From an uncultured Clostridia bacterium (GTDB taxonomy: Bacteria > Acidobacteriota > Aminicenantia > JdFR-78), in the NCBI GenBank assembly GCA_964632095.1, contig CAZWBN010000001.1:1-33461 (forward strand): DNA of 33,461 bases. Reading direction: 5' to 3'. The notes below the pieces were generated by a model, which was given only the letters and a program-made list of their open reading frames with translations, did no database searches and was not told the origin of the DNA. This document shows positions 14,187 to 32,956 of this stretch, piece after piece (positions within the stretch are counted from its first letter, which is position 1; the number at the start of each line of letters is the position of its first letter). A program made the position numbers and the translations under genes.

Positions 14187-14219
14187 GAATTAGTTTGGAA
14201 TGGTCTAAAAAGGAGTCAA

Positions 14220-14305: not shown

Positions 14306-14316
14306 ACTCATAGGAA

Positions 14317-15869: not shown

Positions 15870-16396
15870 TCATCTTCAATTTTAAATTCCCACGCACACC
15901 AGTAATCAGACGGATGAGGGTCCGGAGGACAGGCAATACAGGCTGTCTTTATTCTCGGGTCTATGGTTTTAGCAAAATAGGTGTATTCCACTATACCGAC
16001 TGGCTTACAGGGAAAATCAGGAAGATTTTTTCTCCTGCGGGCTTCCTGAACCCGACAAGTTATCATCCTGAACACACACCGATTTTCTGATACTTCCATT
16101 ATTTCCTGTTTATTAATATGAGCATAAAGCCGAAATTTTAAAGCCTGAATCAATGCCGGAATTCCACCTCCTGGCTCTATATTCAATCTTTTCATTATTC
16201 TTTTAGCCTCAACAACGGTAAATTTTTCCCATGCCCTGCGGTCCAGCTCAATAGCTTTTTCCATTCCAAATTCCTTCTCGACTTCCTGGAACCAGAGTCC
16301 GTCATGAGCAAGCCAGTTTTTGGCAGCATCAGATAATAATTCTAAAAGTTCCTCCTTTGATAAATCCTTAACCTCTTTCATTGGTTTTCTCCTCAA
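15866..16396 (-). CDS. Conserved Cys-rich cytosolic protein (DUF6125-like / ATC-hydrolase-like fold)
   Basis: NWLAHDGLWFQ, CRVQEARRRKNLPDFPCKPVG, CIACPPDPHP...CAWEF. The family name is recalled from memory only. The start may instead be the second Met (16381). Confidence 0.45.
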   Translation of the reverse strand: MRRKPMKEVKDLSKEELLELLSDAAKNWLAHDGLWFQEVEKEFGMEKAIELDRRAWEKFTVVEAKRIMKRLNIEPGGGIPALIQALKFRLYAHINKQEIMEVSENRCVFRMITCRVQEARRRKNLPDFPCKPVGIVEYTYFAKTIDPRIKTACIACPPDPHPSDYWCAWEFKIEDE

Positions 16397-17582
16397 TATT
16401 TCCAGGTTTTCTTATTTTTAATTCTTCCAAAACTTCATAAAGATTATTTTTATCCATGATTATTATTTCCACAGAGGAATCAGCAAGAGCGTATTCAGGT
16501 CCTTTTCCTTTAAACTTTTTCTTTAAAATTAAAAAATCTACATCTCTTTTAATTAAATCCTCTGCAATGGCTATTCCTTTCCCCTTTTCCTGATGCACAA
16601 ATGGATTCTCAAAGGTCTCTATTTTTTTAATATTATTTGTATCTACATTAACATTAATTAAAGCGAAATAAGGTGCTTCTCCAAAATGTTCTGACAGTTC
16701 TCCTTCAGGTGATTTTAAAGGCACTGCATATTTAAAAATTTTCTTCTGAATAGGCTCATAATGGATCCGTATGCTGTCTATATGTGGAATCTCCTTCTTA
16801 ATTTTTTGTTCCAGCAATTCTACAATATGATGCGCCTTTTCAACTTCTCTAACATTGAGAGTTAAATCTGCCTCTATAAATCGATAACGCCCTGAGTTTC
16901 TACCGAGCAGGGTTTTAATCTGTCCCACCCTCCTTTCCTCAATAATGATTTTTCTTATTTTATTTAAAGTTTCGTAATCCAATGATGCATCCAGCAAAAC
17001 CTTAAGGGAATCGATTAATATTTCATATCCTGATTTCACAATAAAAATTATTACTATTCCAGCTGCAAATTTTTCTATCCGAATTCCAAACAAATACCCG
17101 CTTAATCCTATGAAAACAATTAATGAGGAGAGAGCATCTGACTTTGAATGATGCCCATCAGCTATTAAACTCGGAGAATTTGTTTTTTTACCCGCTTTTA
17201 TTTTATAGATTGAAAGAAAATAAGATACCAAAAAAGCTATCATAGAAACCAAAAGAGCAAGATTAAGATGTTTTACTTTAGGAAGAGAGGCAAAAATTAC
17301 CTCTTTTCCAATTTCATATCCTGCTAAAAAAATAAAAAAAGAAATAATAAGAGAAATCAAATTCTCCACCTTGTGAAGTCCATAAGGAAATGTTTTGGAT
17401 TTTCTCTTTGAGATTTTCAATCCAGCGAAAACAGCCAATGAGGAGATAAAATCCGTTAAGCTATGAATAGCATCTGCTTTAATAGCAATACTTCCCGAAA
17501 GAACAGCAATAAAGGATTTGAAAACTAAAAGGAATAAAGTTATTGAACTTGAAATTAATGAAACCTTTTCGGTTTGTTCCAT
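16368..17582 (-). CDS. Cation diffusion facilitator (CDF) transporter with a C-terminal NifX/NifB-type (dinitrogenase FeMo-cofactor-binding family) domain
   Basis: Six TM helices with metal-site motifs HSLTD (TM2) and HSKSD (TM5). A cytoplasmic CDF dimerisation domain follows (RFIEADLTLNV...IRIHYEP). The last ~110 aa read KYAVPLKS...SEHFGEAPYFALINV...GKGIAIAEDLIKRDVDFLILKK..GKGPEYALADSSVEIII, the NifX/NifB-C pattern. Confidence 0.8.
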   Translation of the reverse strand: MEQTEKVSLISSSITLFLLVFKSFIAVLSGSIAIKADAIHSLTDFISSLAVFAGLKISKRKSKTFPYGLHKVENLISLIISFFIFLAGYEIGKEVIFASLPKVKHLNLALLVSMIAFLVSYFLSIYKIKAGKKTNSPSLIADGHHSKSDALSSLIVFIGLSGYLFGIRIEKFAAGIVIIFIVKSGYEILIDSLKVLLDASLDYETLNKIRKIIIEERRVGQIKTLLGRNSGRYRFIEADLTLNVREVEKAHHIVELLEQKIKKEIPHIDSIRIHYEPIQKKIFKYAVPLKSPEGELSEHFGEAPYFALINVNVDTNNIKKIETFENPFVHQEKGKGIAIAEDLIKRDVDFLILKKKFKGKGPEYALADSSVEIIIMDKNNLYEVLEELKIRKPGNIEEKTNERG

Positions 17583-20807: not shown

Positions 20808-21254
20808 TTACAAGAATATTTCTTCTTTAGCAGGATTTGGACCTAATTTTTTTATTTTTTCTGAAAATTCAGTAGTTACTCTCGCGAATCTTGGACCTTC
20901 TGAAGCAGATACCCAAGAAAGAGCTAAGCGTTCGAAATCAAGACCAAGAGTTTCAAAAACTTTTTGTAATAATACAAATCTTCTACGGGCATAATAATTT
21001 CCTTTCTGATAATGGCAATCTCCGGGATGACATCCCATAATTATAACTCCATCAGCTCCTCCCAAAAAGGCTTTTAAAACAAAAAGAGGATTTACTCTTC
21101 CAGAACACATAACTCTAACCGCCTTAAGGGAAGAAGGAACATTTAATCTGCTAACTCCCGCAAGGTCAGCCCCTGTATAAGCACACCAATTACAAAGAAA
21201 ACCTATTATTTTTGGATTATATTCCTTATTCATCTCCATTAGCTCCTTTTGCAT
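20808..21254 (-). CDS. mvhD: MvhD/FlpD-like [2Fe-2S] electron-transfer protein (methyl-viologen-reducing hydrogenase delta subunit family), copy 2
   Basis: IGFLCNWCAYTGADLAG, VRVMCSGRVNP, GADGVIIMGCHPGDCHY..GNYYARRR. Confidence 0.85.
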   Translation of the reverse strand: MQKELMEMNKEYNPKIIGFLCNWCAYTGADLAGVSRLNVPSSLKAVRVMCSGRVNPLFVLKAFLGGADGVIIMGCHPGDCHYQKGNYYARRRFVLLQKVFETLGLDFERLALSWVSASEGPRFARVTTEFSEKIKKLGPNPAKEEIFL

Positions 21255-21275
21255 TAATATTTATTTTTAATAGAT

Positions 21276-22385
21276 TTATTCTCCTATTTCAGCGAATTCT
21301 TCTGTCTTAAATGTTCCGAATGGAATTGATTCTTCAATATCTTTTCCTGGAAGATACTCAAACATTTTCTGAAGGGAATCTCCAACCATAGAAAAAATCA
21401 TAGATACAGGAATATTTACTGGGCATACATCTGAACACATCCCACAGCCTACACAGGAAACTCCCATATGAACCATTCTTCCTATATGAAAAAACAAAGT
21501 GCCGGGGGGGACTCGAATACCTCCTTTTTGATTTAGCTCCATATTATAACTCGAAGGTTTATACTCAAAAATCTTAGACTCAAAATCACATAATGTACAA
21601 TAACAAATTGGACAAGCATGACTGCAAGCGTGACAGCTTAAACAAGCCGAGAATATTTTTATTAAGGTTTTGAATTCAAGTTTCTCAATTCCCAATTCTT
21701 CATAAAGTTTCTTCTTTTGTGTTTTTCTTTTATTCTTCAATTCAGTTATTTCATTCGTGTCCATTTCTTCAAAAACAATATCTCCTGGTGCCTCTTTGGC
21801 AAAATTTTCTCCTTTATCCGTGTTCAGAAAAATATTACACTCCTTATCTGTATTTTTCTTTTCTACTATAGCAATCGTCATATCTGCTTGATAAGGAATA
21901 AAATGTTCACAAGTCTGGCAGGTTGGTCTAATATTGGAAGAAATATTACCTTTTTTTATACTCTCCCAATATATAGGAAGTAGCTTCTTAACCTCACCAT
22001 TGACAGCTGATTTTAAAGGGAAAACTCCTCCACATGTTAAGCTTATTAATAAAAAATTTTCCATACTACCTTGAAATCTTTTAACAAGTTCAATAAAACT
22101 TCTTATTTCACAAGGTCGAAGAACAGCAGCAACTGTGTCTTTAGTGGCTTCCAGCAATGTAAACGCTGATAAGACTTTTCCAGCATTAACGGGCATTAAA
22201 GGAAAAAGAGGCACAGCTTTTTTTAATTCATCAAGATGTGTAATAAGGGAATAGGAAACAGCTCCATTCTCATTAGTTTTCTTTAATGTGAAGATTCCTT
22301 TTACTTTTCCACTTTCTAACAAAAATTTGAGAAAGTCATTAATGCCTTCCTCAACACCTTTTTTAATTTTTAATACCTTAGGCAT
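21276..22385 (-). CDS. AsrA / FrhB-like Fe-S protein with two 4Fe-4S motifs, paralogue 2
   Basis: RPCEIRSFIEL, TCQTCEHF, CLSCHACSHACPICYCTLCDFES and CVGCGMCSDVCPVNIP. Same layout as the upstream 415-aa paralogue and as the AsrA / sulfhydrogenase-beta pattern I recall. Confidence 0.6.
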   Translation of the reverse strand: MPKVLKIKKGVEEGINDFLKFLLESGKVKGIFTLKKTNENGAVSYSLITHLDELKKAVPLFPLMPVNAGKVLSAFTLLEATKDTVAAVLRPCEIRSFIELVKRFQGSMENFLLISLTCGGVFPLKSAVNGEVKKLLPIYWESIKKGNISSNIRPTCQTCEHFIPYQADMTIAIVEKKNTDKECNIFLNTDKGENFAKEAPGDIVFEEMDTNEITELKNKRKTQKKKLYEELGIEKLEFKTLIKIFSACLSCHACSHACPICYCTLCDFESKIFEYKPSSYNMELNQKGGIRVPPGTLFFHIGRMVHMGVSCVGCGMCSDVCPVNIPVSMIFSMVGDSLQKMFEYLPGKDIEESIPFGTFKTEEFAEIGE

Positions 22386-23625
22386 TTTGTGTTTCCTCCC
22401 TTGAAATAGTCTTTTTATATTGCATTTCTACTTCTTGAAATTCATCCTCCTGGAAGAATCTTAAAGGAGGTGGTTCTCTTCTATCTCGTCCAGGGACATA
22501 GCCAAATGATTTCTGGACTTGATCAGCCACAATACAAAATACTTGGGCTATAGGAATGTTCATTGGACAAGCATCTTCACAAACACCACAAGAAACACAA
22601 GATAGCACCATATGAGACATCCGTCCCAAGTGAAAAAGTAAAGTATCCAAAGGAAAACGTAAGGACTTTCTTTCTTTTGCTCTGGTAAGATAAACTTCGG
22701 GTGAAAGCCTTAAAGTTTTGGAATCAAAGTAGCATTGGCGACAATAGCAAATAGGACAAACTCTCATACAGTTATGACAATTAATACATTGGTCAAATAC
22801 AGCAACAAACTTTTTCGGCCCTTCAATCTTTGCTTTTAGCTCTTGAAGAATTTTTTTTCTCTTATTTTCTTTTTTATCTCTTAATTCTTTTTCTTTTATC
22901 TCCCAATCCTCTAAAGAATCTTCGGTTGCAATCTCAAGTTTTTCCAAGATTTCTTCTCCTTTGGAGCTTACTGGCATGAGAAAGATTTTTTCTCCATTAC
23001 CTCCTACAAGTCCTATGTGTATATCAGAAGCAGGTGAATCAATTCCTTCTAATTCAACTGAGGCAGACTGTCGAGAAATAGAAGGTAAGAGTGAAGATAG
23101 ACTAAACCGGTGGCAAATAATGCAAATAGGCCTTAATGATTCATTTTCTTCCCATGTTTCAAACAAATTGTTAAATCGTTTTGCCATTTCCTTAGGATTA
23201 CTTATGTAGTCAGACAATGGCATTGCTCCAGGGCAATCAATACTAATAAGAGTAATGTTATTTAGACTGACTTGTTTAAGCTTAAAAAGTTCAATAACTG
23301 CTCTAATTTCGCACGGTCTCATGATGGCAGCAATTTGCAAATTCATTTCTCCATGCTTAGTTAAAGTTGACAAGGCTCTTCCACCTTGAACAGATATTAC
23401 TGGTGGCAAAGGGTTTGCCTCATTGAGCAATGACTTATCTTTTAGTAAAACCCAAACATAGGAATCCGTATCATGAACTTTTACAGGTATAAAAAGAGCA
23501 TCAAAACACTTCTTCTCCAGTGATTTTCTAAGAAAATCAAGAATTGCTTTATGAATTCCTCCTTCAGCATGAAGGACCGCGCCTTTTTTAGGTTTTTTAA
23601 AAAACTCATTTTGAACTGTACTCAT
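22378..23625 (-). CDS. AsrA / FrhB-like Fe-S protein with two 4Fe-4S motifs, paralogue 1
   Basis: RPCEIRAVIEL, ICIICHRF, CINCHNCMRVCPICYCRQCYFDS and CVSCGVCEDACPMNIP. 8-nt overlap with the downstream paralogue. Confidence 0.6.
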   Translation of the reverse strand: MSTVQNEFFKKPKKGAVLHAEGGIHKAILDFLRKSLEKKCFDALFIPVKVHDTDSYVWVLLKDKSLLNEANPLPPVISVQGGRALSTLTKHGEMNLQIAAIMRPCEIRAVIELFKLKQVSLNNITLISIDCPGAMPLSDYISNPKEMAKRFNNLFETWEENESLRPICIICHRFSLSSLLPSISRQSASVELEGIDSPASDIHIGLVGGNGEKIFLMPVSSKGEEILEKLEIATEDSLEDWEIKEKELRDKKENKRKKILQELKAKIEGPKKFVAVFDQCINCHNCMRVCPICYCRQCYFDSKTLRLSPEVYLTRAKERKSLRFPLDTLLFHLGRMSHMVLSCVSCGVCEDACPMNIPIAQVFCIVADQVQKSFGYVPGRDRREPPPLRFFQEDEFQEVEMQYKKTISREETQNA

Positions 23626-23667
23626 TGTTTTCTCCTTCCTCTCAAATATTAGTATATAAAATTATTA

Positions 23668-25353
23668 TCATCGCAATGCTTCAAGAACTTCCCGATATAA
23701 CTGTGGATAAGTAAAGTGTTTCAATCGAATTGCACCAGAAGGACAACTACCAACACAATTTCCACACCCTCTGCAGATTGCTTCATTAACAACTGAAACG
23801 CCTTTAAACTCGTCAAAACTTATAGCACTGTAAAAACACACTGAAAGACAAGTCTGACAGCCTGTACAAAACTCTTCTACTATTTCAGAAACTCTAACTT
23901 CTGGTTCTAATTTTTTACCGGGAATAAGACAAGAAAGAATTTTCCCACATGCTGCTTGAGATTGGATGACCGATTCCAAAATATTCTTAGGGCCTGAGGC
24001 ACAACCTGCAATATAAATGCCCTCAATAGGAGTTGAAACTGGATCAAGTTTCTCATGAATTTCTTTAAAAAATCCTGTTTCATCAAGGGGAATATTCAGT
24101 ATTTTAGCCAATTTCTCAGTATTTTCCGCTGGTATAATAGCTGGAGATAGCACAACCATATCCACAGAAAGGCTTCCTTTCTTCTCAGTTATAGTTTTAT
24201 ATTCAATATTTATATTGCTGTTACTTTTCTTTATCTGGATTTCATTTGCTTTAATGAAATTAACTCCTTTCTTTTTTACCTCTTCAAAATAATCTTGATC
24301 ACTCTTATGAGGAAGACAAAGGTCCGAATAGAATTCAAATACATTAACATCCGACAATTTATCTTTAAGAAATTGAGCAAATTTTAGCGAATAGAGACAG
24401 CAAACTTTAGAACAATATCCTTTTTCCTTGCGACCAACACAGTGAATAAGAGCCACAGTTTTTGGAGGCTTCCCATTCTTAAGTAGGATTTTATCGGAGG
24501 CAATCATTTCTTCGAATTCTAAGGCATTTACCACATTTTCAATAGTTCCATATCCATACTGAGGAGTTTCCTTAGGATCAAATAAACTGAATCCTGTAGC
24601 AACAATAATTGCTCCAACTTTAATTTCTTTCTGCTCTAAATCATTGCGATTGCTTTTTATTACAATTTCAAAATTTCCAAAAAATCCGCGTACATTCTCA
24701 ACCTCGCTTGAGGTTAAAACAACGATATTTTCGTTATTCTCAACTTCTTTAATTTTCTTTTGTAGAAAAGTTAAATCCATTCCTTGATGAGGAAGCAACC
24801 CAGAAAGTTTTCTCACTTTTCCACCTAAAACTGATGTTTTTTCCACCAAATAGACCTTTCTCTCTGGACTTGCAAGAGAAAGACTAGCTTCAATACCAGC
24901 AATCCCGCCACCAATAATTAACACATTTGGATTGCACTCAAGCTCCTTCTTCTGAAGAGGTTTATGTAAAAGGACTCGATTAATTCCCGCTCGAATATAT
25001 TTCGTGGCCATACGAGTAGCTTCTTCTTTATTGGATATTATCCAAGCACATTGCTCCCGGATATTAACGAGTTGGAATAAATAAGGATTTAAACCAGCCT
25101 TTTCGCATACATTCATGAATGTAATTTCATGTTCTTTCGGAGAACAAGCAGCAATGACAAGGTGAGTTAATTCTTCGTTTTTTATCTCGTCAGCAAGAAA
25201 TTTCTTGCCTTCATTAGAACAAAGAAGTGGATACTTTTTAACGACTTTAATGTCTTCAATAGATGATAAGTTCTCTAAAATCTCATCTATATTTATTCTA
25301 TCACGAATATTTGGACCACATTCACAAATATATACTCCAATTTTTTTACTCAT
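23668..25353 (-). CDS. hdrA: HdrA-like flavoprotein, long form (N-terminal HdrA domain + FAD domain + C-terminal 2x[4Fe-4S] ferredoxin domain; QmoB-like but without an MvhD domain)
   Basis: N-terminus IGVYICECGPNI...IAACSPKEHE...VNIREQCAW. FAD fold VLIIGGGIAGIEASLSLA. HdrA-type Cys motif CVGRKEKGYCSKVCC. C-terminus CTGCQTCLSVC...CRGCGNCVGSCPSGAI. Confidence 0.85.
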   Translation of the reverse strand: MSKKIGVYICECGPNIRDRINIDEILENLSSIEDIKVVKKYPLLCSNEGKKFLADEIKNEELTHLVIAACSPKEHEITFMNVCEKAGLNPYLFQLVNIREQCAWIISNKEEATRMATKYIRAGINRVLLHKPLQKKELECNPNVLIIGGGIAGIEASLSLASPERKVYLVEKTSVLGGKVRKLSGLLPHQGMDLTFLQKKIKEVENNENIVVLTSSEVENVRGFFGNFEIVIKSNRNDLEQKEIKVGAIIVATGFSLFDPKETPQYGYGTIENVVNALEFEEMIASDKILLKNGKPPKTVALIHCVGRKEKGYCSKVCCLYSLKFAQFLKDKLSDVNVFEFYSDLCLPHKSDQDYFEEVKKKGVNFIKANEIQIKKSNSNINIEYKTITEKKGSLSVDMVVLSPAIIPAENTEKLAKILNIPLDETGFFKEIHEKLDPVSTPIEGIYIAGCASGPKNILESVIQSQAACGKILSCLIPGKKLEPEVRVSEIVEEFCTGCQTCLSVCFYSAISFDEFKGVSVVNEAICRGCGNCVGSCPSGAIRLKHFTYPQLYREVLEALR

Positions 25354-25391
25354 TTTTCCTTCCCTCCTTTTAAGTTATTATGGGATTGCGC

Positions 25392-26663
25392 TCAACTGAG
25401 GAGGGATAACACTTTTCCCACCGCAGCTTCAGCTTGAGCAATAGATTCAGAAATATCTTTAGGACCCTCTGCGCACCCAATTACAAAAATACCTTGAACG
25501 GAAGTTGTAATCGGAGAAAGACTTTGATTCTGTGTAGAAAAGAAACCTTTTTCATCCACGCTAATGCCAAGAATCTTAGCCAGTTCCTTTGTACCATTTT
25601 TTGCAATCATTGCGGGAGAAAGAATAACCATATCTGCATTGAAAACACTTCTCTCGCCATCACCATTTTTATATACGACTTGGATTTTGCCATCCTTTTT
25701 TTCTACTCTAATGTCATCACTATAAATGAGTTCTACACCCTTATTCTGTATTTCCTTATAGAATTTCTGATAGGATTTACCAGGAATGCATAAATCAGAA
25801 TAAAATTCACAAATTTTTGCATCGGGAAGTTTATGCCTAAGATAATGGGAAAATTTTGCAGAATACATACAACAAACTCCAGAACAGTATCCTTTCTCAG
25901 CTCGTCCGACACAATGAATAATAGCAACGGATTTTGGAATACTGCCCTCTCTCAATATAATCTTTCCTTCAGTTGGACCATTAGCAGCATTAAGCCTTTC
26001 AAACTCCATCGCAGTATAAATATTGCTTGAATCTCCATAACCATATTGGGGAAGTATTTTAACATCTAAAAGATCAAATCCTGTCGCAACTATGATGGCA
26101 CCCACTTCTAACTCAAGTATTTCATCCTTATCGGAAAAATCAATCGCGTCAAACATGCATGCTTCTTTACATGCTTGACATTCTTGTTTACCACTAAGAT
26201 ATAAACAGTTTTCTGGATCAATAGCAGGAACATTAGGCAAGGCTCCGGGACAAGGAATCGAAATAGCTTTCTTTTTTGAGAGGCATTGTTCAAATTCGTT
26301 ATACAAGCTGACAGGGCAAGGATCATAGCAGGCACCACAACCAATGCAGTTTGTCAAACTCACATATCTTGCTCTTTTTCTAATACGAACTGAAAATTGT
26401 CCAGCAGACCCCGCAATCTTCTCAACTTCACTCAGCAAGAATAACTCAATATTTTCATTCTGAAGAACCTCTTGTTGTTTCGGGGCTACCATACATGTTG
26501 AACATTCCATATTGGGAAAAACTTCTTCGTATTTAATTACTTGTCCTCCTATTAATGATTCTTTCTCAACCAGATATACTTTTCGTCCTGCTTCTGCCAA
26601 TAAAAGACTGGCCTCCATTCCTGCAATACCAGCACCAATAATTAAAACATTAGGATTTTTCAT
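25392..26663 (-). CDS. HdrA-like flavoprotein, short form (FAD domain with inserted ferredoxin domain; QmoA-like)
   Basis: VLIIGAGIAGMEASLLLAEAGRKVYLVEK, MECSTCMVAPK, inserted CIGCGACYDPCP...CQACKEAC, HdrA-type motif CVGRAEKGYCSGVCC. Lacks the N- and C-terminal HdrA domains. Confidence 0.85.
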   Translation of the reverse strand: MKNPNVLIIGAGIAGMEASLLLAEAGRKVYLVEKESLIGGQVIKYEEVFPNMECSTCMVAPKQQEVLQNENIELFLLSEVEKIAGSAGQFSVRIRKRARYVSLTNCIGCGACYDPCPVSLYNEFEQCLSKKKAISIPCPGALPNVPAIDPENCLYLSGKQECQACKEACMFDAIDFSDKDEILELEVGAIIVATGFDLLDVKILPQYGYGDSSNIYTAMEFERLNAANGPTEGKIILREGSIPKSVAIIHCVGRAEKGYCSGVCCMYSAKFSHYLRHKLPDAKICEFYSDLCIPGKSYQKFYKEIQNKGVELIYSDDIRVEKKDGKIQVVYKNGDGERSVFNADMVILSPAMIAKNGTKELAKILGISVDEKGFFSTQNQSLSPITTSVQGIFVIGCAEGPKDISESIAQAEAAVGKVLSLLS

Positions 26664-26684
26664 TTTTCCTCTCTCCTTTTCTAA

Positions 26685-27110
26685 TTAAATATTTGGATTA
26701 TTATGAAAAGGATTAGGTCCCATCTCACTTATATTTTCAGCAAACTTATTAACAACTTCTGCATAGCGTTTACCCTCGGAAGCAGATATCCAAGAAAGTT
26801 GAAGCCGTTCCGGCTCTAAATCTAAGGTTTCCATAATTTTCTTTAAAAGAGCAAACCTCCTACGGGCATAATAATTTCCTGTCTCATAGTGACAGTCTCC
26901 AGGATGACATCCAGCAATTAGAACACCATCAGCTCCCCAAAGGAAAGCAGTTAGTGCCAAATTTGAATTAACTCGACTGGAACACATTACTCTGACAACG
27001 GATAGGTATGGTTTTATTTCTAATTTACTCGAACCTGCAAGATCTGCTGCTGCATAGGAGCACCAATTGCATAAGAAACCTACTAATCTTGGCTTAAATT
27101 TTTCACTCAT
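26685..27110 (-). CDS. mvhD: MvhD/FlpD-like [2Fe-2S] electron-transfer protein, copy 1
   Basis: VGFLCNWCSYAAADLAG, VRVMCSSRVN, GADGVLIAGCHPGDCHYETGNYYARRR. Confidence 0.85.
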   Translation of the reverse strand: MSEKFKPRLVGFLCNWCSYAAADLAGSSKLEIKPYLSVVRVMCSSRVNSNLALTAFLWGADGVLIAGCHPGDCHYETGNYYARRRFALLKKIMETLDLEPERLQLSWISASEGKRYAEVVNKFAENISEMGPNPFHNNPNI

Positions 27111-27181
27111 CGTCTTTTATCTCCTTCACATGCATATTTGTTTTATAGGATTATTGTTTGAAGGTAAGGATACCGCAGCAT

Positions 27182-27406
27182 TTAGAACTGTATTTGAGCC
27201 TTATATTTTCCGCCTCCCTCGTCTGTACAAAAAAGCAATGTTTTACCTGTTTTCTCAGCCCAAGCTTTGATATCCTTTGGAAACGAGGGACAATCAGCCA
27301 GGACTTCGAGAATATCACCTGGCTGCATTTGAGGAGCCATCGCGGCCACCTTTAAAATAGGTTGAGGACATTTAAGTCCGTAGGTATTAAGTGTTTTTAT
27401 TGCCAT
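27182..27406 (-). CDS. tusA: TusA/SirA-family sulfur carrier protein
   Basis: 74 aa with N-terminal LNTYGLKCPQPILKV (conserved CP.P active-site Cys motif). Confidence 0.85.
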   Translation of the reverse strand: MAIKTLNTYGLKCPQPILKVAAMAPQMQPGDILEVLADCPSFPKDIKAWAEKTGKTLLFCTDEGGGKYKAQIQF

Positions 27407-27453
27407 TTTTAACCTCCTTAAATTATGATATTGTTTAAAATAATTATTATTCC

Positions 27454-27807
27454 TTAAAAAGAGAAGGTTATTGTGGCATCTTTAATGGCGTTTATAAATG
27501 TAGTTGCTCCAACTATTTCTACGCCTTCTCTGAATTCCTCTTCTTTTATTCCCTTAGCTTCTAATGCCAATTCGCAAACCATTATTTTGCCTCCTAAACT
27601 ACGCAACCCATTGTATAATTCAACTAAATCTGGGAGCCCTTTAACTTTCATTTGCTCAATCACGCCTTTTACCATAGAAGGGGCACCACCAGGAGTAAAA
27701 AATAAAATTACCTCATCCCCGGTAGCTGCTGCTGAAGACCCTAAAATAAAAGGAGGGAAAACATTCCCTGGCTCTGAGCCATTAACTGTAATTGCTACTT
27801 TTGCCAT
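27454..27807 (-). CDS. DsrE/DsrF-like (DrsE_2, COG2044-type) sulfur-relay protein
   Basis: 117 aa: KVAITVNGSEPGNVFPPFILGSSAAATGDEVILFFTPGG...GGKIMVCELALEAKGI...ATITFSF. Single conserved Cys in the MVCE motif. Confidence 0.75.
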   Translation of the reverse strand: MAKVAITVNGSEPGNVFPPFILGSSAAATGDEVILFFTPGGAPSMVKGVIEQMKVKGLPDLVELYNGLRSLGGKIMVCELALEAKGIKEEEFREGVEIVGATTFINAIKDATITFSF

Positions 27808-27821
27808 TATGAAACCTCCTT

Positions 27822-27867
27822 ATAAAATTAAAATTTTATTATGTTTATGATATGTTTTAAATAGCAA
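27822..27867 (-). promoter_or_regulatory. Candidate internal promoter plus AT palindrome upstream of the dsrE-like gene
   Basis: Minus strand reads TTGCTA (27867-27862), 18-nt spacer, CATAAT (27843-27838). The -10 overlaps an 8-2-8 inverted repeat ATAAAATT-aa-AATTTTAT (27822-27839), just upstream of the AGGAGG RBS. All-AT composition makes a chance match plausible. Confidence 0.3.
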
Positions 27868-27898
27868 CTCACATAATTTTAATTTTTTCATTTTCTTT

Positions 27899-28171
27899 TT
27901 ATTTAATGGATTGAAGTATCTTCTTTATTTTCTTCGGCTCTGTTAAAAAGTAACAACGTAAGTTTCCTTTTGGACGAGAATCAACAATTCCACAAAACTT
28001 CAATATATTTAGATGCTGAGAAATATTAGGTTGACTCACATTAAGAAGTTCTTGAATATCATTTACACATTTCTCTCCTTCTAATAGTGTTTCTACTATG
28101 AGGAGACGAGTCGGATGAGCTAACGCCTTAAAAATTTGAGCACTCTTCTTATAACTTATTTCAGTTTTCAT
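27899..28171 (-). CDS. ArsR/SmtB-family winged-helix transcriptional regulator
   Basis: ALAHPTRLLIVETLLEGEKCVNDIQELLNVSQPNISQHLNILK is the canonical ArsR HTH. Three Cys (EKCVND, KFCGIV, LRCYFL). 90 aa. Confidence 0.85.
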   Translation of the reverse strand: MKTEISYKKSAQIFKALAHPTRLLIVETLLEGEKCVNDIQELLNVSQPNISQHLNILKFCGIVDSRPKGNLRCYFLTEPKKIKKILQSIK

Positions 28172-28183
28172 CTGTAAAATAAG

Positions 28184-28213
28184 TATATAAACATATTCGA
28201 ATATTGATATATT
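28184..28213. promoter_or_regulatory. Candidate ArsR-type operator: perfect 12-bp palindrome ATATTCGAATAT (28193-28204) inside a longer imperfect inverted repeat TATATA-N3-ATATTCGAATAT-N3-TATAT
   Basis: Read directly. Lies 13-42 nt upstream of the arsR ATG and downstream of a possible -35 TTGACA (minus strand, 28243-28238). Resembles the AT-rich TTC/GAA-cored inverted repeats bound by ArsR/SmtB repressors. Confidence 0.35.
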
Positions 28214-28285
28214 CTTTTATCACAAATAAACTAGCTATGTCAATAAATTTTTAAATATTATATCAAACTTTTTTATTTTTTAAGT

Positions 28286-28498
28286 TTACCACCAACGTCC
28301 TCTTTCTTGGTAAGTTTTCATAAATCTTTCAATTGAACGGTCATAGGTTCTCTCAACATCATCAGGAAAAAAACAAGCGGGAAGCTCTCCCATACTCCAG
28401 TGATACTGGAGACATTCACAGCAAATGCCTTTTCGTGAACAGGGCTCATAAGAGCAATTACATTTCTCAAGATTTTTGTTCACACTACATTCTTTCAT
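28286..28498 (-). CDS. Small cysteine-rich protein (DUF6485-like), unknown function
   Basis: 70 aa with 8 Cys: [31 protein letters not shown]...LPACFF. Strong RBS (AAGGAGG). The family name is recalled from memory only. Confidence 0.5.
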
Positions 28499-28537
28499 CT
28501 TACCTCCTTACATAATTTCTTTTTGAGATTAAAGAGG

Positions 28538-28999
28538 TTAAATATTTCGATAAAATTTACGCCAGGGTTCACGCTTTTTATAAAGATAATCGGAGAGGGC
28601 TTTCCGAAGAGTACTTGTTGCTAATAATGCACAATGCTGGTCAGCCTCAGGCAAACCACCTAATGCCTTTAAAAGCTTTTCCTGAGTAATTGTTAAGGCT
28701 CCAAGAATATTCTTTCCTTTTGCTAACTCTGTAACCATACTTCCGCATGAAATTGTTGTTCCGCATCCATCAGTCAGGAAGCCACAATCTACAATTTTAT
28801 CATTTTCAATTTTTAAAAATATCTCCATTGTATCTCCACATGGACCTTTCACTTTTCCATATCCATCTGGGTTTTCAATTTTCTTAAGATTTCTGGGATT
28901 CTGCCAGTGTTCAATTACAGTCTCTGAGTATTTCTTCTTTATTTCTTCCATAATTTTCTTTTGAAGTTCGCTGGCAATTTCCTCAAGGGTTTTGCTCAT
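28538..28999 (-). CDS. NifU N-terminal / IscU-like Fe-S cluster scaffold protein
   Basis: GPCGDTMEIFLKI, FLTDGCGTTISCGS and ADQHCALLATSTLRKAL give the three conserved scaffold cysteines in IscU-like spacing. Confidence 0.8.
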   Translation of the reverse strand: MSKTLEEIASELQKKIMEEIKKKYSETVIEHWQNPRNLKKIENPDGYGKVKGPCGDTMEIFLKIENDKIVDCGFLTDGCGTTISCGSMVTELAKGKNILGALTITQEKLLKALGGLPEADQHCALLATSTLRKALSDYLYKKREPWRKFYRNI

Positions 29000-29619
29000 C
29001 TCTCTCCCTCCTCTTCGATAAGAGCATTAATTACATTTCTAATTTTCTGCATGGAAAGTGAATATTCTTTTCTGAGTTTTCCCAATCTTCTGGTTAAAGG
29101 AATATCCTCAGGAAGCCCCAATCTATCAATGATTTTTTTTGCAGGAATGCCGGTTTTCTCCTGAATATCATAGAGAGTCATCTGCCCAGAAATTTTTATA
29201 ATTTTTATATAATTCTTGATATTTCTCTGTCTATACCCCTGTTCATATTTTTCCCCATATCCTCTATAAGCCTCTGGATTTTTAGGATAAAAGTACCACA
29301 ATGAAAAAATTAAAAGAGCAGGTAAAATCAATATAAAAACAACAACCCATATTTTTCCAAAAAGTTTTTCTGTTTTCCCTTTTATCCAGCTCCAGTGAAG
29401 TATAATATGAATGATAAAAAAAGTTATAAAGGCTAATGAAAGGTAGAGATGAATGTTTCCCCATTGATGTCTGTGAAGCTGCCATAAGTATTTATCTGCC
29501 TCATTGACAGCTGGTCCTTTTGGAATAAAAAACCCCATGAGAATGCCAATGAAAGCAATAGCTGTCAACAGTACAAAAAGAATTATATCTACAACATAAT
29601 ACAGTGTTGTTTTTTTCAT
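28996..29619 (-). CDS. Membrane protein with DUF4405-like His-rich helices and a small cytoplasmic C-terminal helical domain
   Basis: Three TM segments. LHRHQWGNIHLYLSLAFITFFIIHIILHWSW is a His pattern reminiscent of DUF4405 / b-type cytochrome-like domains. C-terminus MTLYDIQEKTGIPAKKIIDRLGLP. Confidence 0.55.
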   Translation of the reverse strand: MKKTTLYYVVDIILFVLLTAIAFIGILMGFFIPKGPAVNEADKYLWQLHRHQWGNIHLYLSLAFITFFIIHIILHWSWIKGKTEKLFGKIWVVVFILILPALLIFSLWYFYPKNPEAYRGYGEKYEQGYRQRNIKNYIKIIKISGQMTLYDIQEKTGIPAKKIIDRLGLPEDIPLTRRLGKLRKEYSLSMQKIRNVINALIEEEGER

Positions 29620-29641
29620 TTTCTATAATTACTTTTCACTA

Positions 29642-30514
29642 TCAAACCAATAATTCTAACATATTTTTCCAGATTAGTTGAATTATTTTCGTAATATTAT
29701 TTGTAGTATATTCAACAACTGGAATTCCCTGGACCATTGATTCTATTATTTCTTCACTATAAGGAATTTTTCCTATCACTGGAATATTCTCCCTATTGCA
29801 CCAGTCCTCAATTTTGCTTGTGTTATCAATATTCAAATCATATTTATTAATGCAACATACAGCTTTTACTTTAAAGTGTCTTGCAACATTAACTACTCTT
29901 TCCATGTCATGAATTCCTGAAAGGGTTGGTTCAGTAACTACCAAAGCTAACTCAACTCCTGATAGAGAAGCAATAACAGGGCAGCCAATTCCTGGTGGTC
30001 CATCAATTATTATTAAATTTAAATTATTCTTCTCAGCAATTGAACTCGCATTCTTTCTTACTTCAGTAACCAGCTTACCTGAATTCTCCTCTGCGATTCC
30101 AAGTTTTGCATGAACAAAAGGTCCATATTTTGTCTCTGAAATATACCACTCTCCAGAAATATTATCTCGCATTTCAATAGCTTTCTCTGGACAGATATAA
30201 CTGCAAACAGCACAACCTTCACAGGAAATAGGGTCAACAATTATCAAATTATTTTCTTCTTTTATGGCGTTGAATCTGCATACTTCCCTGCATTCCCCGC
30301 ATTGAATACACTTTTCCTGAATAATATATGCCTTTTTCCCACCATAAAATTCATGTTTTTCTTTTATATCGGGATGAAGAAGAAGATGTAGATTTGAAGC
30401 ATCCACATCGCAATCTACCATAACTTTATTAGATGCCAAGGATGCAAAAGAAGCAGTTAGAACAGTTTTACCTGTTCCTCCTTTACCGCTTATAATAACT
30501 ATTTGTTTAATCAT
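29642..30514 (-). CDS. MinD/ParA-superfamily P-loop ATPase with inserted 2x[4Fe-4S] ferredoxin domain (COG1149-type), copy 2
   Basis: Deviant Walker A SGKGGTGKT. Insert CIQCGECREVC...CEGCAVCSYICPEKAI, then DGPPGIGCPVIASL. Confidence 0.85.
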   Translation of the reverse strand: MIKQIVIISGKGGTGKTVLTASFASLASNKVMVDCDVDASNLHLLLHPDIKEKHEFYGGKKAYIIQEKCIQCGECREVCRFNAIKEENNLIIVDPISCEGCAVCSYICPEKAIEMRDNISGEWYISETKYGPFVHAKLGIAEENSGKLVTEVRKNASSIAEKNNLNLIIIDGPPGIGCPVIASLSGVELALVVTEPTLSGIHDMERVVNVARHFKVKAVCCINKYDLNIDNTSKIEDWCNRENIPVIGKIPYSEEIIESMVQGIPVVEYTTNNITKIIQLIWKNMLELLV

Positions 30515-31358
30515 TTTTCTGTATCAGTATTTTAATGTTTTTATATAATTCAATAAATTTTTCCTTCCATTCAGGCTTCTCAGATACGAAGGGAACTCCT
30601 TTGGAATAAGCAATGGCTATTTCTTTATCCATAGGTATTGACATAAGAACAGGAATCTTTTCTTCTATGCAATATTCTTCAACTTTTTTATCTCCTATAT
30701 CAGCTCTATTAATAATTACTCCAAAGGGAATTCTTAATTTTCTTACTACACCTACTGCAAGTTTTAAATCATTAAGACCAAAAGGAGTAGGCTCGGTTAC
30801 CAGAATACAAAAATCGCTCTCTTTTATTGATTCAATCATTGGGCAGGAGGTACCCGGGGGAGCATCTGCAATTATTATGCGAGTAGGATTAATACATCTT
30901 TTTACTTCTCTGATTAAAGGAGTGGGCATGGGCTCTCCGATATTCAATTTACCATGAACAAATTGAATACTATTCACCATGCCAAATTCTCTTATTCCTA
31001 TAATCCTGTTTTTTTCTGTAATCGCTTTTTCAGGACAGAGTAAGGCACATCCACCACATCCATGACAAAGTTCCGGGAAAATCAGAACATTCTGTTTTGT
31101 TACTGCAATTGCATTATAAGCACAAACTTCGGCACACTTTCCACAGTAAGTACATTTCCTTTCATCCACTTCAGGCACAGGAATACCAATATCTGTATGA
31201 AAGGATATATTCGGTTTCAAGAAAAAATGAGCATTAGGTTCTTCCACATCACAATCAAGAAATTGGACAGGATAGGATTCACACAAGGATAGAGCAAAAT
31301 TTACAGCAATTGTGGTCTTCCCTGTTCCTCCTTTTCCACTTGCAATAGAGATAATCAT
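30507..31358 (-). CDS. MinD/ParA-superfamily P-loop ATPase with inserted 2x[4Fe-4S] ferredoxin domain (COG1149-type), copy 1
   Basis: SGKGGTGKT. Insert CTYCGKCAEVC...CHGCGGCALLCPEKAI, then DAPPGTSCPMIESI. 8-nt overlap with copy 2. Confidence 0.85.
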   Translation of the reverse strand: MIISIASGKGGTGKTTIAVNFALSLCESYPVQFLDCDVEEPNAHFFLKPNISFHTDIGIPVPEVDERKCTYCGKCAEVCAYNAIAVTKQNVLIFPELCHGCGGCALLCPEKAITEKNRIIGIREFGMVNSIQFVHGKLNIGEPMPTPLIREVKRCINPTRIIIADAPPGTSCPMIESIKESDFCILVTEPTPFGLNDLKLAVGVVRKLRIPFGVIINRADIGDKKVEEYCIEEKIPVLMSIPMDKEIAIAYSKGVPFVSEKPEWKEKFIELYKNIKILIQKND

Positions 31359-32149
31359 TTTATCTCTATAACCTTCCCCGCACCAGCTTTTATGAAATTT
31401 TCACCGTATTCTTTCTCGAAAAGGATTATCGTTTCTTTGCCAGAACAATGACATGGGGCTGCCTTTTGAACCCCGAGGTCTTTAAAGTCATATATAACCT
31501 TTTCTATTTCTCGTTTTGAGAAACCCGCCATATGAAAACCTCCCAAGACCAGATATACATTTCCCTTAACCACTTCTTTGGCTTTTGATACGATTAATGT
31601 AATTCCTGGATGAGCACAACCTGTTATAACAATCAATCCTTTTCCTGTCTTTAAAATAAGAGATTGTTCTTTTATCCAGGTCCCGAGAACTCCCGTGGTA
31701 TAAACATTTTCAATAATTTGCTGTGGACCTTTAACTTCCCGAAGAATTGCTCCTTTCTCTTTAATTTTATCTTTAAATTTTGTGGAGAAAGTCTCAGGAA
31801 CCCATACTTCTACTTTATTATTTATATTTAAAAATCCTTCGAGTCCTCCTGTGTGATCACCGTGAGCATGTGAAAGGAAGATTATGTCAATTTCAGCTGG
31901 GTCAATTTCTAATTTCTTCATATTGGAAAGAAGAGTTTCACTACTCCCACCGGTATCAAATAATATTGCTTTTTCAAAACCGCGTATCAAACAGGAAAAA
32001 CCCCATTCCGTCTTCAATTCTTCATTGAAAGGATTATTGTCATAAACAATAATAATCTCTGGATTTTTATTTTTCTTCATTCTTATTACTCCTAAAAAAG
32101 AAATTAAAATTATAAAATTTATTAGAAAAAACTTGAGATTATCTCTCAT
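31355..32149 (-). CDS. Metallo-beta-lactamase-fold protein (COG1237-type)
   Basis: LSHAHGDHTGGL (HxHxDH), ITGCAHPG, GGFHM. The longest ORF adds a hydrophobic 23-aa leader and overlaps the ferredoxin stop by 4 nt. The internal Met at 32080 (MKKNKNPEIIIVYDN) is an alternative start. Confidence 0.75.
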   Translation of the reverse strand: MRDNLKFFLINFIILISFLGVIRMKKNKNPEIIIVYDNNPFNEELKTEWGFSCLIRGFEKAILFDTGGSSETLLSNMKKLEIDPAEIDIIFLSHAHGDHTGGLEGFLNINNKVEVWVPETFSTKFKDKIKEKGAILREVKGPQQIIENVYTTGVLGTWIKEQSLILKTGKGLIVITGCAHPGITLIVSKAKEVVKGNVYLVLGGFHMAGFSKREIEKVIYDFKDLGVQKAAPCHCSGKETIILFEKEYGENFIKAGAGKVIEIK

Positions 32150-32412
32150 TTTCTTGACGCCAACTCATTAATTTTTTTATTTAACCTGTTTATTTTATGT
32201 TTTAAATTTTGAATTCTTTCTTTTAAATCATCTATTTCTGAATAAGATACAAATTCAACTGCTCCTAAGGGACAAACAGATAAACATGTTCCACATTTAA
32301 TACATCTTGAAACATCTATGAAAGCTTTTTTATTGATAAGAGAAATGGCACCAGTAGGACAATACTGAACACATAGCCCGCATCCCCTACAATTTCTGTT
32401 TACTCTGTACAT
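32146..32412 (-). CDS. 2x[4Fe-4S] ferredoxin with C-terminal coiled-coil tail
   Basis: CRGCGLCVQYCPTGAI and CIKCGTCLSVCPLGAV, followed by DDLKERIQNLKHKINRLNKKINELASRK. Confidence 0.8.
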   Translation of the reverse strand: MYRVNRNCRGCGLCVQYCPTGAISLINKKAFIDVSRCIKCGTCLSVCPLGAVEFVSYSEIDDLKERIQNLKHKINRLNKKINELASRK

Positions 32413-32415
32413 TCA

Positions 32416-32655
32416 TCAATCCCTTTTACAAATTCCATCTGATGAGCAAGGTGGAGTATCACATCTCTCTGTTCTTCCACAGCAGGTTGTCCCACTTTGA
32501 GTGGATTCACCCATCATTACTGCACCAGGAATGGATAGTAATTTCTCTAATTCACTTGAACCACAACTTGGACAATTTGGTTTTTCTTCAATAGTCTTTT
32601 GAAAGATTTCTATTATTTTCCCACAATTTTTACATTTGTACTCATAAATGGGCAT
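32416..32655 (-). CDS. FmdB-family (CxxC_CxxC_SSSS) zinc-ribbon protein with Cys-rich tail
   Basis: MPIYEYKCKNCGKIIEIFQK...CPSCGS is the FmdB signature. Tail GTTCCGRTERCDTPPCSSDGIC. Confidence 0.75.
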   Translation of the reverse strand: MPIYEYKCKNCGKIIEIFQKTIEEKPNCPSCGSSELEKLLSIPGAVMMGESTQSGTTCCGRTERCDTPPCSSDGICKRD

Positions 32656-32701
32656 CTCCCTTCCCTCCTAAAAACTAAAAAGTAAAAATTAATTTACATT
32701 T

Positions 32702-32920: not shown

Positions 32921-32956
32921 TCTGAACCTCCTTATAAGTTTAATATTTTGTTATCA

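Follow-up and report, generated by a model that had tools for sequence, protein, structure and literature searches.

A conserved operon joining a split HdrA core and an FdhB/ElpB-like pair to TusA- and DsrE-type sulfur carriers in uncultured anaerobes

The contig CAZWBN010000001.1 (33,461 nucleotides; assembly GCA_964632095.1) of an uncultured bacterium deposited under Clostridia and placed by GTDB in the Aminicenantia of the Acidobacteriota (JdFR-78) carries a nine-gene operon which encodes, in this order, an ArsR-type regulator, a DsrE-family and a TusA-like sulfur carrier, the [2Fe-2S] connector MvhD1, a short and a long HdrA paralogue, two FdhB/ElpB-like proteins of 415 and 369 residues (FdhB1 and FdhB2), and a second connector, MvhD2. 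We propose that these genes specify a soluble multi-subunit Fe-S flavoprotein complex of the HdrA lineage which is coupled to a cytoplasmic sulfur relay and would work as an Hdr-type, probably bifurcating, enzyme with sulfur or a disulfide borne by TusA and DsrE as its acceptor, a reading to which we give a probability of somewhat less than one half (about 0.45). Every module comes from a known family; it is the joining of these modules to two sulfur carriers that is the unusual element, and this element is widespread in uncultured anaerobic bacteria and archaea.

Gene order and distribution of the operon

The nine genes lie on the minus strand and are read from position 28171 to position 20808 of the analysed stretch (hereafter the window, that is, the whole 33.5 kb), each open reading frame (ORF) being located at the coordinates (Table 1) that had been given in an earlier, sequence-only reading of this DNA. 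From arsR to mvhD2 the genes are separated by 91, 47, 71, 21, 38 and 42 nt, an 8-nt overlap between those of FdhB1 and FdhB2, and 21 nt, which confirms the nine co-directional genes with gaps of at most 91 nt and a single overlap described there, and Pfam and NCBIfam profiles agree with the names then given to ArsR, DsrE, TusA, MvhD and HdrA. The statement that the redox components come in pairs likewise stands: MvhD1 and MvhD2 share 62% identity, HdrA-short and HdrA-long 48% over 254 residues, and FdhB1 and FdhB2 34%, and they are true paralogues. All nine proteins are devoid of transmembrane-like segments (no hydrophobic 19-mer scoring above 1.8), in agreement with the soluble, cytoplasmic module that had been postulated. 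Profile searches of the ORFs of the whole window detected no CCG-domain protein (HdrB), HdrC, QmoC, LbpA, hydrogenase, FdhA, Apr/Sat or AsrB/C, so that the list of absent partners drawn up earlier for the locus can be extended to all 33.5 kb; the sole HdrC-like element in the window is the Fer4_8/Fer4_17 domain within the FdhB-like proteins.

The operon is real and its arrangement far beyond chance, since the same gene order recurs at 41–86% protein identity in dozens of metagenome-assembled genomes (MAGs) from many phyla. A scan of species-representative genomes yielded at least 300 confirmed loci, the best 80 of which were analysed, and the protein collection contains 1,901 (FdhB1) and 1,229 (FdhB2) homologue clusters at E ≤ 1e-10. 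Bacterial loci were found in Aminicenantes, Dehalococcoidia, Anaerolineae, Cloacimonadota, Ignavibacteria, Eisenbacteria, WOR-3, Zixibacteria, TA06, Aerophobetes and Armatimonadota, and archaeal loci in Thermoplasmatota; the gene-neighbourhood check for which the sequence-only reading had called thus returned conserved synteny in about a dozen lineages from both domains, and not its absence from every relative. FdhB2 follows FdhB1 in 78 of the 80 loci. Upstream sequence of 4.6 kb or more was available for 56 loci, of which 43 belong to type I, with separate genes for HdrA-short and HdrA-long, and 10 to type II, in which the two are fused; both types have two MvhD genes. Among the 43 type-I loci, the module is preceded by TusA in 36, by DsrE in 34 and by both in 33. 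The DsrE-TusA pair is thus conserved across phyla and domains, and to this extent the earlier claim of a tie to sulfur carriers is upheld.

The neighbourhood of the module in the 80 loci is informative as well. YeeE/YedE-family transporters occur in 14 loci, three of them between HdrA-long and FdhB1, and rhodaneses in nine, several of these transporter and rhodanese genes lying within the cluster; one associated transporter scores above the curated cut-off for the thiosulfate transporter TsuA, and some score best, below cut-off, on the YedE/FdhT model. Further neighbours are HdrC (15 loci), HdrB (10), HdrD-like proteins (7), and MvhG, MvhA and HycI (10–12). The claim that the module has no recognizable catalytic partner is hence valid for the window but not for the relatives, in which HdrC, HdrB, HdrD or MvhAG adjoin it with these frequencies. 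FdhA/ElpA, QmoC, AprAB and Sat are not among the neighbour families conserved in at least six of the 80 loci.

A reciprocal search starting from DsrE homologues (73–78% identical) found TusA and HdrA/MvhD genes adjacent in three of three further lineages. Of these, Chitinispirillaceae has the cluster, and on an unassigned contig the order is TusA-YedE-Rhd-Rhd-porin-Rhd-DsrE-ArsR-TusA, followed by the full module. In Fidelibacterota (locus L092, 9001–18357), a DsrE-TusA pair (73% identical) lies directly 5' of a 909-residue fusion of HdrA, a partial MvhD and a CCG domain, after which come MvhG, MvhA, HdrC, HdrB, HdrA and MvhD, i.e. a canonical Mvh-Hdr cluster. The DsrE-TusA pair hence tracks HdrA/MvhD-type complexes in general.

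In four loci (L028, L061, L066 and L071) a second, more distant cluster is located beside the main one, with the order HdrL-like protein (~1,000 residues), MvhD, one or two weak FdhB-like ORFs, a PyrK/AsrB-like NAD-binding [2Fe-2S] protein and HdrC; it may represent a related, NAD(P)H-linked module.

The split HdrA core and the FdhB/ElpB-like pair

Both HdrA proteins match the HdrA2 model (E = 5e-126 for HdrA-short and 1.4e-150 for HdrA-long), and their alignment with methanogen HdrA shows that the two paralogues have lost complementary domains. HdrA-long aligns in two blocks (residues 12–244 and 321–652; E = 1.5e-115) and comprises an N-terminal [4Fe-4S] domain, a flavin adenine dinucleotide (FAD) domain with the HA4 cysteine motif, and a C-terminal 2x[4Fe-4S] ferredoxin domain; neither the inserted ferredoxin domain nor the CxxC motif is present in it, the HdrA sequence 'FPTLDCSMC' being replaced by 'LLPHQGMDLT'. 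HdrA-short, which aligns with HdrA residues ~142–556 (E = 2.5e-92), is devoid of the N- and C-terminal domains and retains, besides the FAD domain with the HA4 cysteines, what HdrA-long is missing, namely the inserted 2x[4Fe-4S] ferredoxin domain and the CxxC motif (Cys54/Cys57). The motifs HA1–HA6 are therefore all present, yet divided, with HA1–HA4 in HdrA-long, and HA4, HA5, HA6 and CxxC in HdrA-short. The cysteines of HdrA-short are invariant in 48–49 of 49 orthologues, and Cys54/Cys57 coincide by alignment position with Cys194/Sec197 of methanococcal HdrA. The corresponding CxxU motif is a known feature of the HdrA family (PMC13188914), and the Cys/Sec197 pair, which is situated between cluster A3 and the FAD, has tentatively been credited with a redox-active role (PMC13518236). 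In type-II clusters HdrA-short and HdrA-long are fused in the same order into one 977-residue protein; HdrA-short aligns end to end with residues 3–408 of the fused (~980-residue) protein, and HdrA-long with residues 430–960. This natural fusion argues that the separate proteins form a heterodimer, that is, one pseudo-dimeric core. MvhD1 and MvhD2 match the FlpD profile (E = 1.5e-50 and 7.9e-53), and five cysteines are invariant in 32 of 32 MvhD1 and 57 of 57 MvhD2 orthologues. In orthologue alignments the cluster-binding cysteines of the module are invariant across phyla.

Two HdrA paralogues of unequal length combined with an MvhD module, in a sulfur-metabolism setting, bring to mind QmoA and QmoB (PMC3333476), and 'type II' QmoAB proteins close to HdrA are known from organisms with as well as without Dsr and Apr (PMC10504309). 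One may thus ask if the operon encodes a Qmo-type electron donor for adenosine 5'-phosphosulfate (APS) reductase, with the HdrA pair representing such an HdrA-like 'type II QmoAB'. However, MvhD is free-standing and duplicated here, HdrA-long ending with a ferredoxin domain, whereas QmoB carries a fused MvhD; the haem-b membrane subunit QmoC is missing, as is any link to aprBA or sat, both from the window and from the conserved neighbours of the relatives; and FdhB-like subunits are present in addition. We consider this role to be extremely improbable, and note that the module is set apart from type I and type II Qmo by gene content and published descriptions, not by sequence comparison.

The 415- and 369-residue proteins had been taken for AsrA-like proteins in the sequence-only reading. 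This assignment has to be given up: with 24.4 and 15.3 bits they fall far short of the TIGR02910 cut-off of 323, and what they have in common with AsrA and the sulfhydrogenase beta subunit is just the C-terminal 2x[4Fe-4S] ferredoxin-like motif, whereas they are set apart by the FrhB-type domain at the N terminus, by the overall fold and by the top PDB matches, all of them FdhB/ElpB; AsrB and AsrC are absent as well. Instead, sequence matches and predicted folds identify the pair as an FdhB/ElpB subtype of the FrhB family. The closest solved relatives of both proteins are ElpB and the beta subunits of coenzyme F420-dependent formate dehydrogenases from Hdr supercomplexes (FdhB1: 9t1s_M, 6.9e-32; 8rvu_E, 1.9e-24; 7bkb_E, 1e-22; FdhB2: 9t1s_M, 3.7e-32; 7bkb_E, 9.4e-25). 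Consistently, the AlphaFold2 models (predicted TM-score, pTM, 0.75 for FdhB1 and 0.70 for FdhB2, with confident N-terminal halves) have as their top fold matches ElpB 8rvu_E (TM 0.64/0.69) and FdhB 7bkb_E in the case of FdhB1, and 7bkb_E and 8rvu_E in the case of FdhB2 (Foldseek TM 0.62–0.69 for the pair), followed at lower rank by other FrhB-family flavoproteins, i.e. the N-terminal half of Fsr, HCAR, FrhB and an F420-reducing carbon monoxide dehydrogenase subunit. Each FdhB-like protein has 15 invariant cysteines, sufficient for about four [4Fe-4S] clusters, and those of FdhB1 are kept in 73 of 73 orthologues. That FdhB1 or FdhB2 is the plain beta subunit of a nearby formate dehydrogenase was rejected, with no FdhA/molybdopterin gene in the window or among the conserved neighbours. 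Residues ~175–200 of FdhB1 form a Ser-rich insert of variable length between a CxxC and a 'DxHxG' motif (pLDDT, the per-residue model confidence, <50), which is found in FdhB1 of the Aminicenantes type and missing from 381-residue relatives.

In methanogens, FdhB and ElpB are the FrhB-family subunits which pass electrons via MvhD to HdrA in the Fdh-Hdr and Elp-Hdr complexes, and in Elp-Hdr a hydride from F420H2 is taken up at the FAD of ElpB. Since FdhB/ElpB is thus a known input partner of MvhD-HdrA, the pair more plausibly forms an entry arm than a novel catalytic substitute for HdrBC: of the two roles that had been suggested for it as a substitute for HdrBC or QmoC, electron entry or exit appears apt and catalysis less so. 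The MvhD2 gene lies directly downstream of that of FdhB2, so that an MvhD/ElpC-type connector is encoded together with the FdhB-like arm, and FdhB1-FdhB2-MvhD2 resembles, in homology and gene order, the ElpA-ElpB-ElpC and FdhAB-MvhD arms of methanogens (the order paralleling elpA-elpB-elpC). In common with Elp-Hdr (ElpABC-HdrABC; 8RVU/8RVY) and Fdh-Hdr-Fmd (FdhAB-MvhD-HdrABC; 7BKB, 9T1S), the module would have (i) an FrhB-fold FdhB/ElpB subunit with about four [4Fe-4S] clusters, (ii) an MvhD/ElpC [2Fe-2S] connector, and (iii) an HdrA with FAD and the HA1–HA6 cysteine motifs. It differs in that a second FdhB paralogue takes the position of FdhA (molybdopterin) or truncated ElpA, that HdrA is split into two complementary paralogues, that there are two MvhD and, in the window, no HdrBC, that the hosts are non-methanogens without coenzymes M and B (CoM, CoB), and that DsrE, TusA and ArsR belong to the operon. 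When compared with HdrABC itself, HdrB with its two CCG domains, which hold the non-cubane clusters and the catalytic site, and a separate HdrC are lacking in the window.

Sulfur carriers, regulator and proposed electron path

The DsrE protein scores above cut-off on both PF13686 (DrsE_2; 57 bits, 2.7e-15) and PF02635 (DsrE; 45.7 bits, 8.8e-12), and its motif KIMVCEL, the MVCE of the sequence-only reading, holds Cys78, which is invariant in 36 of 36 orthologues and aligns with the cysteine of DsrE2B (2QS7) and DsrE3A (3MC3), to both of which the protein is distantly related (E ~1e-6). The TusA-like protein is recognized by PF01206 (66 bits against a cut-off of 28.6; E = 2.8e-18). Its LKCPQP motif contains Cys13, likewise noticed before, which aligns with Cys19 of E. 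coli TusA; a second cysteine, Cys39 in 'DCP', falls at Asp45 ('ADDP') of E. coli TusA and is shared with E. coli YedF (1JE3). Cys13 and Cys39 are both conserved in 43 of 43 orthologues and Cys60 in 41. The invariance of Cys39 suggests that the TusA-like protein may be a redox-active two-cysteine carrier, in which Cys13 and Cys39 could form a DsrC-like pair.

The likeness to YedF also raises the question of selenium, which a YedF-type two-cysteine TusA, YedE-like transporters and rhodaneses might traffic or reduce. The TusA-like protein scores nearly alike on the TusA and YedF equivalog models (38 and 37 bits, with cut-offs of 78 and 79 unreached), shares the 'DCP' cysteine with YedF, and is associated in some relatives with the transporters that score best on YedE/FdhT. 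However, other transporters are of the TsuA type, among them the one above cut-off; the DsrE family is one of sulfur carriers; the surroundings contain no selD or sel genes; and the complex is far too large for the supply of a trace element. A role in selenium metabolism is thus very unlikely.

An HdrA-family flavoprotein genetically coupled to TusA and the DsrE family and, in relatives, to rhodaneses and YeeE-like importers is also seen in the sHdr-LbpA systems (PMC11094781, PMC11582611), so that the module might operate oxidatively, with sulfane sulfur delivered by TusA/DsrE being oxidized and the electrons passed to F420, NAD(P)+ or ferredoxin. Against such a mode of operation stand the absence from the window of sHdrB1/B2/C1/C2, sHdrH and LbpA (the shdrC1B1AHC2B2 core) and of any evident oxygen-atom-donating or sulfite-forming catalytic site, the presence of MvhD and FdhB-like subunits, and the only distant kinship of the DsrE protein to DsrE2B and DsrE3A. 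Moreover, both HdrA proteins belong to the methanogen type and carry additional cluster domains, HdrA-long matching sHdrA (6TJR) at 3.5e-34 and hence being far nearer to methanogen HdrA (see above), and Cloacimonadota hosts are described in the literature as fermentative anaerobes. Aminicenantes, too, are fermentative anaerobes. We would be surprised if the oxidative direction turned out to be the correct one.

For the Hdr-type reductive complex proposed here, we infer the stoichiometry, substrate, hydride donor and catalytic site, as well as the path, direction and bifurcation of the electrons, along the following lines. The core would be the HdrA-short/HdrA-long heterodimer, in which the mobile N- and C-terminal cluster domains of HdrA-long would serve as electron receivers, and HdrA-short would provide its inserted ferredoxin domain as the low-potential exit, with the CxxC motif beside its FAD; the two MvhD [2Fe-2S] connectors and the FdhB1/FdhB2 pair would round off the complex. 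Electrons would be supplied to an FdhB-like subunit by F420H2 or NAD(P)H as hydride donor, or by a different reductant; they would travel along the roughly four [4Fe-4S] clusters of that subunit to MvhD, cross the HdrA-long clusters, and be split at the FAD of HdrA-short. One branch would lead through the inserted ferredoxin domain to ferredoxin, and the other to a sulfur acceptor of higher potential on TusA (Cys13/Cys39) and DsrE (Cys78), be it a persulfide, a polysulfide, a thiosulfonate or a mixed disulfide, from which H2S would be released. Candidate sites of sulfur reduction are Cys54/Cys57 of HdrA-short, or an HdrBC or HdrD from another genomic locus, and in relatives the sulfur may be supplied by YeeE/TsuA-type transporters and rhodaneses. 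It is tempting to speculate that the operon represents a new class of flavin-based bifurcating enzyme, in which TusA/DsrE-bound sulfur derived from imported thiosulfate, polysulfide or S0 takes the role of CoM-S-S-CoB, although we hold this more specific proposal to be doubtful.

Several observations weigh against the proposed reading. First, DsrE and TusA are found in none of the 10 type-II loci, and in Cloacimonadota the core module is accompanied by hdrCBA-mvhD in their stead, with hdrC-hdrB-hdrA-mvhD occupying, in Cloacimonadota and Armatimonadota, the position held elsewhere by dsrE-tusA. The sulfur carriers are therefore a frequent accessory of the module and not an obligate part of it, which is the respect in which the earlier claim of a tie to sulfur carriers falls short. 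Second, the window encodes no CCG/HdrB domain or other known site of disulfide or persulfide reduction. Third, the FrhB-type fold is kept, yet the binding of flavin or F420 is no more than putative for FdhB1 and FdhB2: PF04422 (FrhB_FdhB_N) was detected in neither FdhB1 nor FdhB2, PF04432 (FrhB_FdhB_C) was found in FdhB2 alone and weakly (6.2e-10), and the N-terminal 'GGxVT'-like stretch of FdhB is not kept in FdhB1. Fourth, the potentials of the couples S0/HS- (~-270 mV) and thiosulfate/(HS- + sulfite) (~-402 mV) are far below that of CoM-S-S-CoB (~-140 mV) and would leave little drive for the reduction of ferredoxin from NAD(P)H or F420H2; bifurcation from these donors is hence marginal unless the carrier-bound species is more oxidizing or the donor is H2 or formate. 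Finally, all hosts of the cluster are uncultured, being represented by MAGs or single-cell genomes.

The persistence of the six-module core without DsrE and TusA in type-II clusters and Cloacimonadota could be accounted for by a self-contained, Nfn-like HdrA-based transhydrogenase, in which FdhB1 and FdhB2 would bind different hydride carriers (e.g. F420 or NADP, and NAD), ferredoxin would react at the inserted domain of HdrA-short, and DsrE and TusA would be only loosely associated, for instance in maturation, regulation or as an optional side acceptor. It fits this alternative that FdhB1 and FdhB2 are just 34% identical with unlike N-terminal motifs, and that all solved FrhB-family members retrieved in the fold search are flavoproteins using a diffusible substrate. 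However, a transhydrogenase leaves unexplained why DsrE-TusA is located immediately upstream of the module across phyla (33 of 43 loci) and beside a canonical Mvh-Hdr cluster, and why YeeE and rhodanese genes lie within the cluster, and the FdhB-like proteins showed no identifiable nucleotide-binding motif. A pure transhydrogenase is thus quite unlikely.

The regulator bears on a further alternative. It is an ArsR/SmtB-family protein (HTH_5, 8.6e-17; NF033788, 90.7 bits against a cut-off of 55) that stays below the equivalog cut-offs of BigR (63 versus 155 bits) and TsoR (41 versus 115), and all of the 14 orthologues keep its Cys35 and Cys73; a type-II cluster without sulfur carriers (L086) is accompanied by a regulator that shares 73% identity with it. 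Expression of the operon would probably be set by a sulfur or redox signal sensed by this two-cysteine repressor. Under the further alternative, the repressor would sense a persulfide and the complex would simply reduce persulfide or thiosulfate without bifurcation, low-potential electrons freeing sulfide from TusA/DsrE-bound sulfur for the biosynthesis of cysteine and Fe-S clusters, or relieving sulfane-sulfur stress. YeeE/TsuA with a TusA-like partner is a known route of assimilatory thiosulfate uptake, and matches to the TsuA model among the associated transporters are in accord with such a function, as are (i) the conservation of the two-cysteine ArsR with the module, its best specific NCBIfam match being the sulfur-sensing BigR, below cut-off, and (ii) the neighbours found in Aminicenantes, namely NifU, Fe-S P-loop ATPases and, in nine loci, a Cys/Met pyridoxal-phosphate enzyme. 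Yet for a simple reduction, six subunits, some 17 Fe-S clusters and an intact HdrA core of the bifurcation type make an elaborate apparatus, the Fe-S/NifU neighbours are lineage-specific and missing in Dehalococcoidia and most archaeal loci, and the frequent adjacency of Mvh hydrogenase and HdrBC points to energy metabolism. Sulfur assimilation or detoxification therefore appears unlikely as the main function.

Among systems from non-methanogens, the bifurcating complex proposed here comes close to bacterial MvhADG-HdrABC and FlxABCD-HdrABC(-DsrC), which likewise combine cytoplasmic HdrA/MvhD-type modules, in the case of Flx-Hdr with a small sulfur-carrier protein, DsrC, as the proposed substrate; MvhAG and HdrCB adjoin the cluster in relatives. 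It departs from them in having an FdhB-like input instead of a hydrogenase or FlxABC, TusA and DsrE instead of DsrC, and HdrBC outside of the operon. Hdr-Ifo was considered as an already described equivalent and ruled out, being identical with FlxABCD-HdrABC. In the open-access literature searched, we found no description of the cluster, only generic statements on energy conservation by Hdr/Mvh, which agrees with the impression of the sequence-only reading that the subunit combination was not that of a known complex; the nearest published remark is that HdrA-like 'type II QmoAB' genes in organisms without Dsr or Apr need study (PMC10504309).

HdrA/MvhD genes are common in non-methanogenic anaerobes, but few have been matched to a physiological electron acceptor. 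It is then of importance that an HdrA-type core is linked in this operon with defined sulfur-carrier proteins, an association that extends to roughly a dozen lineages of both domains and provides a testable hypothesis, i.e. the reduction of TusA/DsrE-bound sulfur, possibly coupled to that of ferredoxin. If this turned out to be true, it would reveal a Dsr-independent cytoplasmic route into the 'cryptic' sulfur cycle of sediments and a new acceptor for flavin-based electron bifurcation. Should bifurcation with carrier-bound sulfur indeed take place, cryptic sulfur reduction could serve energy conservation, with no need for Dsr, Psr or Apr, in abundant uncultured fermenters such as Aminicenantes, Dehalococcoidia, Thermoprofundales and WOR-3, and TusA/DsrE would be the long-sought physiological acceptor of HdrA/Mvh complexes in non-methanogens. 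Orthologues of the module are labelled in databases as 'formate dehydrogenase subunit beta', 'coenzyme F420 hydrogenase', 'heterodisulfide reductase' or '4Fe-4S dicluster domain-containing protein', and DsrE as 'peroxiredoxin'; such labels probably distort metabolic reconstructions of MAGs from Aminicenantes, Cloacimonadota, Dehalococcoidia and Thermoprofundales.

Coordinates and surroundings of the operon

Table 1. Features of the operon in window coordinates, with the basis of each assignment
Feature	Coordinates	Strand	Basis or remark
Putative arsR promoter/operator	28167..28243	-	TTGACA -35-like hexamer, then imperfect palindrome centred on TTCGAA just 5' of arsR start codon; tentative
ArsR/SmtB-family regulator, 90 aa, conserved Cys35 and Cys73	27899..28171	-	HTH_5, NF033788
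DsrE-family sulfur carrier, 117 aa, single Cys78 at family active-site position	27454..27807	-	DrsE_2, DsrE
TusA-like sulfur carrier, 74 aa, CPxP Cys13, Cys39 in 'DCP', Cys60	27182..27406	-	TusA profile
MvhD1, [2Fe-2S] connector, 141 aa	26685..27110	-	FlpD
HdrA-short, 423 aa	25392..26663	-	HdrA2 model; alignment to HdrA
HdrA-long, 561 aa	23668..25353	-	HdrA2 model; alignment to HdrA
FdhB/ElpB-like protein 1 (FdhB1), 415 aa	22378..23625	-	PDB sequence matches, AlphaFold2 fold
FdhB/ElpB-like protein 2 (FdhB2), 369 aa	21276..22385	-	FrhB_FdhB_C, PDB sequence matches, AlphaFold2 fold
MvhD2, second [2Fe-2S] connector, 148 aa	20808..21254	-	FlpD

The palindrome upstream of arsR was also picked up as inverted repeats I1 and I2. 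With 9 matches versus 6.2 expected, its half-site ATAAACATAT shows no significant enrichment across the window, and the promoter scan of the window did not report the TTGACA site; counts from the promoter and terminator scans were not above those of shuffled sequences, and the operon is neither defined nor broken by them.

The rest of the contig comprises housekeeping genes (MreBCD, PBP2, RodA, GltX, urocanase and others) and a small Fe-S/cysteine-rich island. The latter extends from 28286 to 33403 on the minus strand, directly upstream of arsR, and consists of small cysteine-rich and Fe-S-related genes encoding DUF6485, NifU-N, a DUF4405 membrane protein, two MinD/ParA-type ATPases with 2x[4Fe-4S] inserts, a metallo-beta-lactamase-fold protein, a 2x[4Fe-4S] ferredoxin (32146–32412), an FmdB-type zinc ribbon (32416–32655), a Gly-rich CxxC protein (32702–32920) and a CGGC-domain protein. 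Parts of it are also located beside the cluster in the Aminicenantes loci L009, L010, L022 and L025 and in the archaeal locus L072. The best homologues of the contig's proteins and the neighbours it has in common with such loci place it in Aminicenantes.

An unusual fusion is encoded at 16368–17582 on the minus strand, where a cation-diffusion-facilitator efflux transporter carries a C-terminal NifX/NifB-type 'Nitro_FeMo-Co' domain. The strand bias of the window is extreme: all ORFs of at least 90 residues with a Pfam match lie on the minus strand, ExbD (4758–5192) being the sole exception, and the GC skew is negative in all 1-kb bins. At 15234–15316 a DUF123 ORF and a methyltransferase ORF overlap by 83 nt, the start codon probably having been called too early, and a tRNA-Leu(CAA) gene is located at 14219–14306 on the minus strand.

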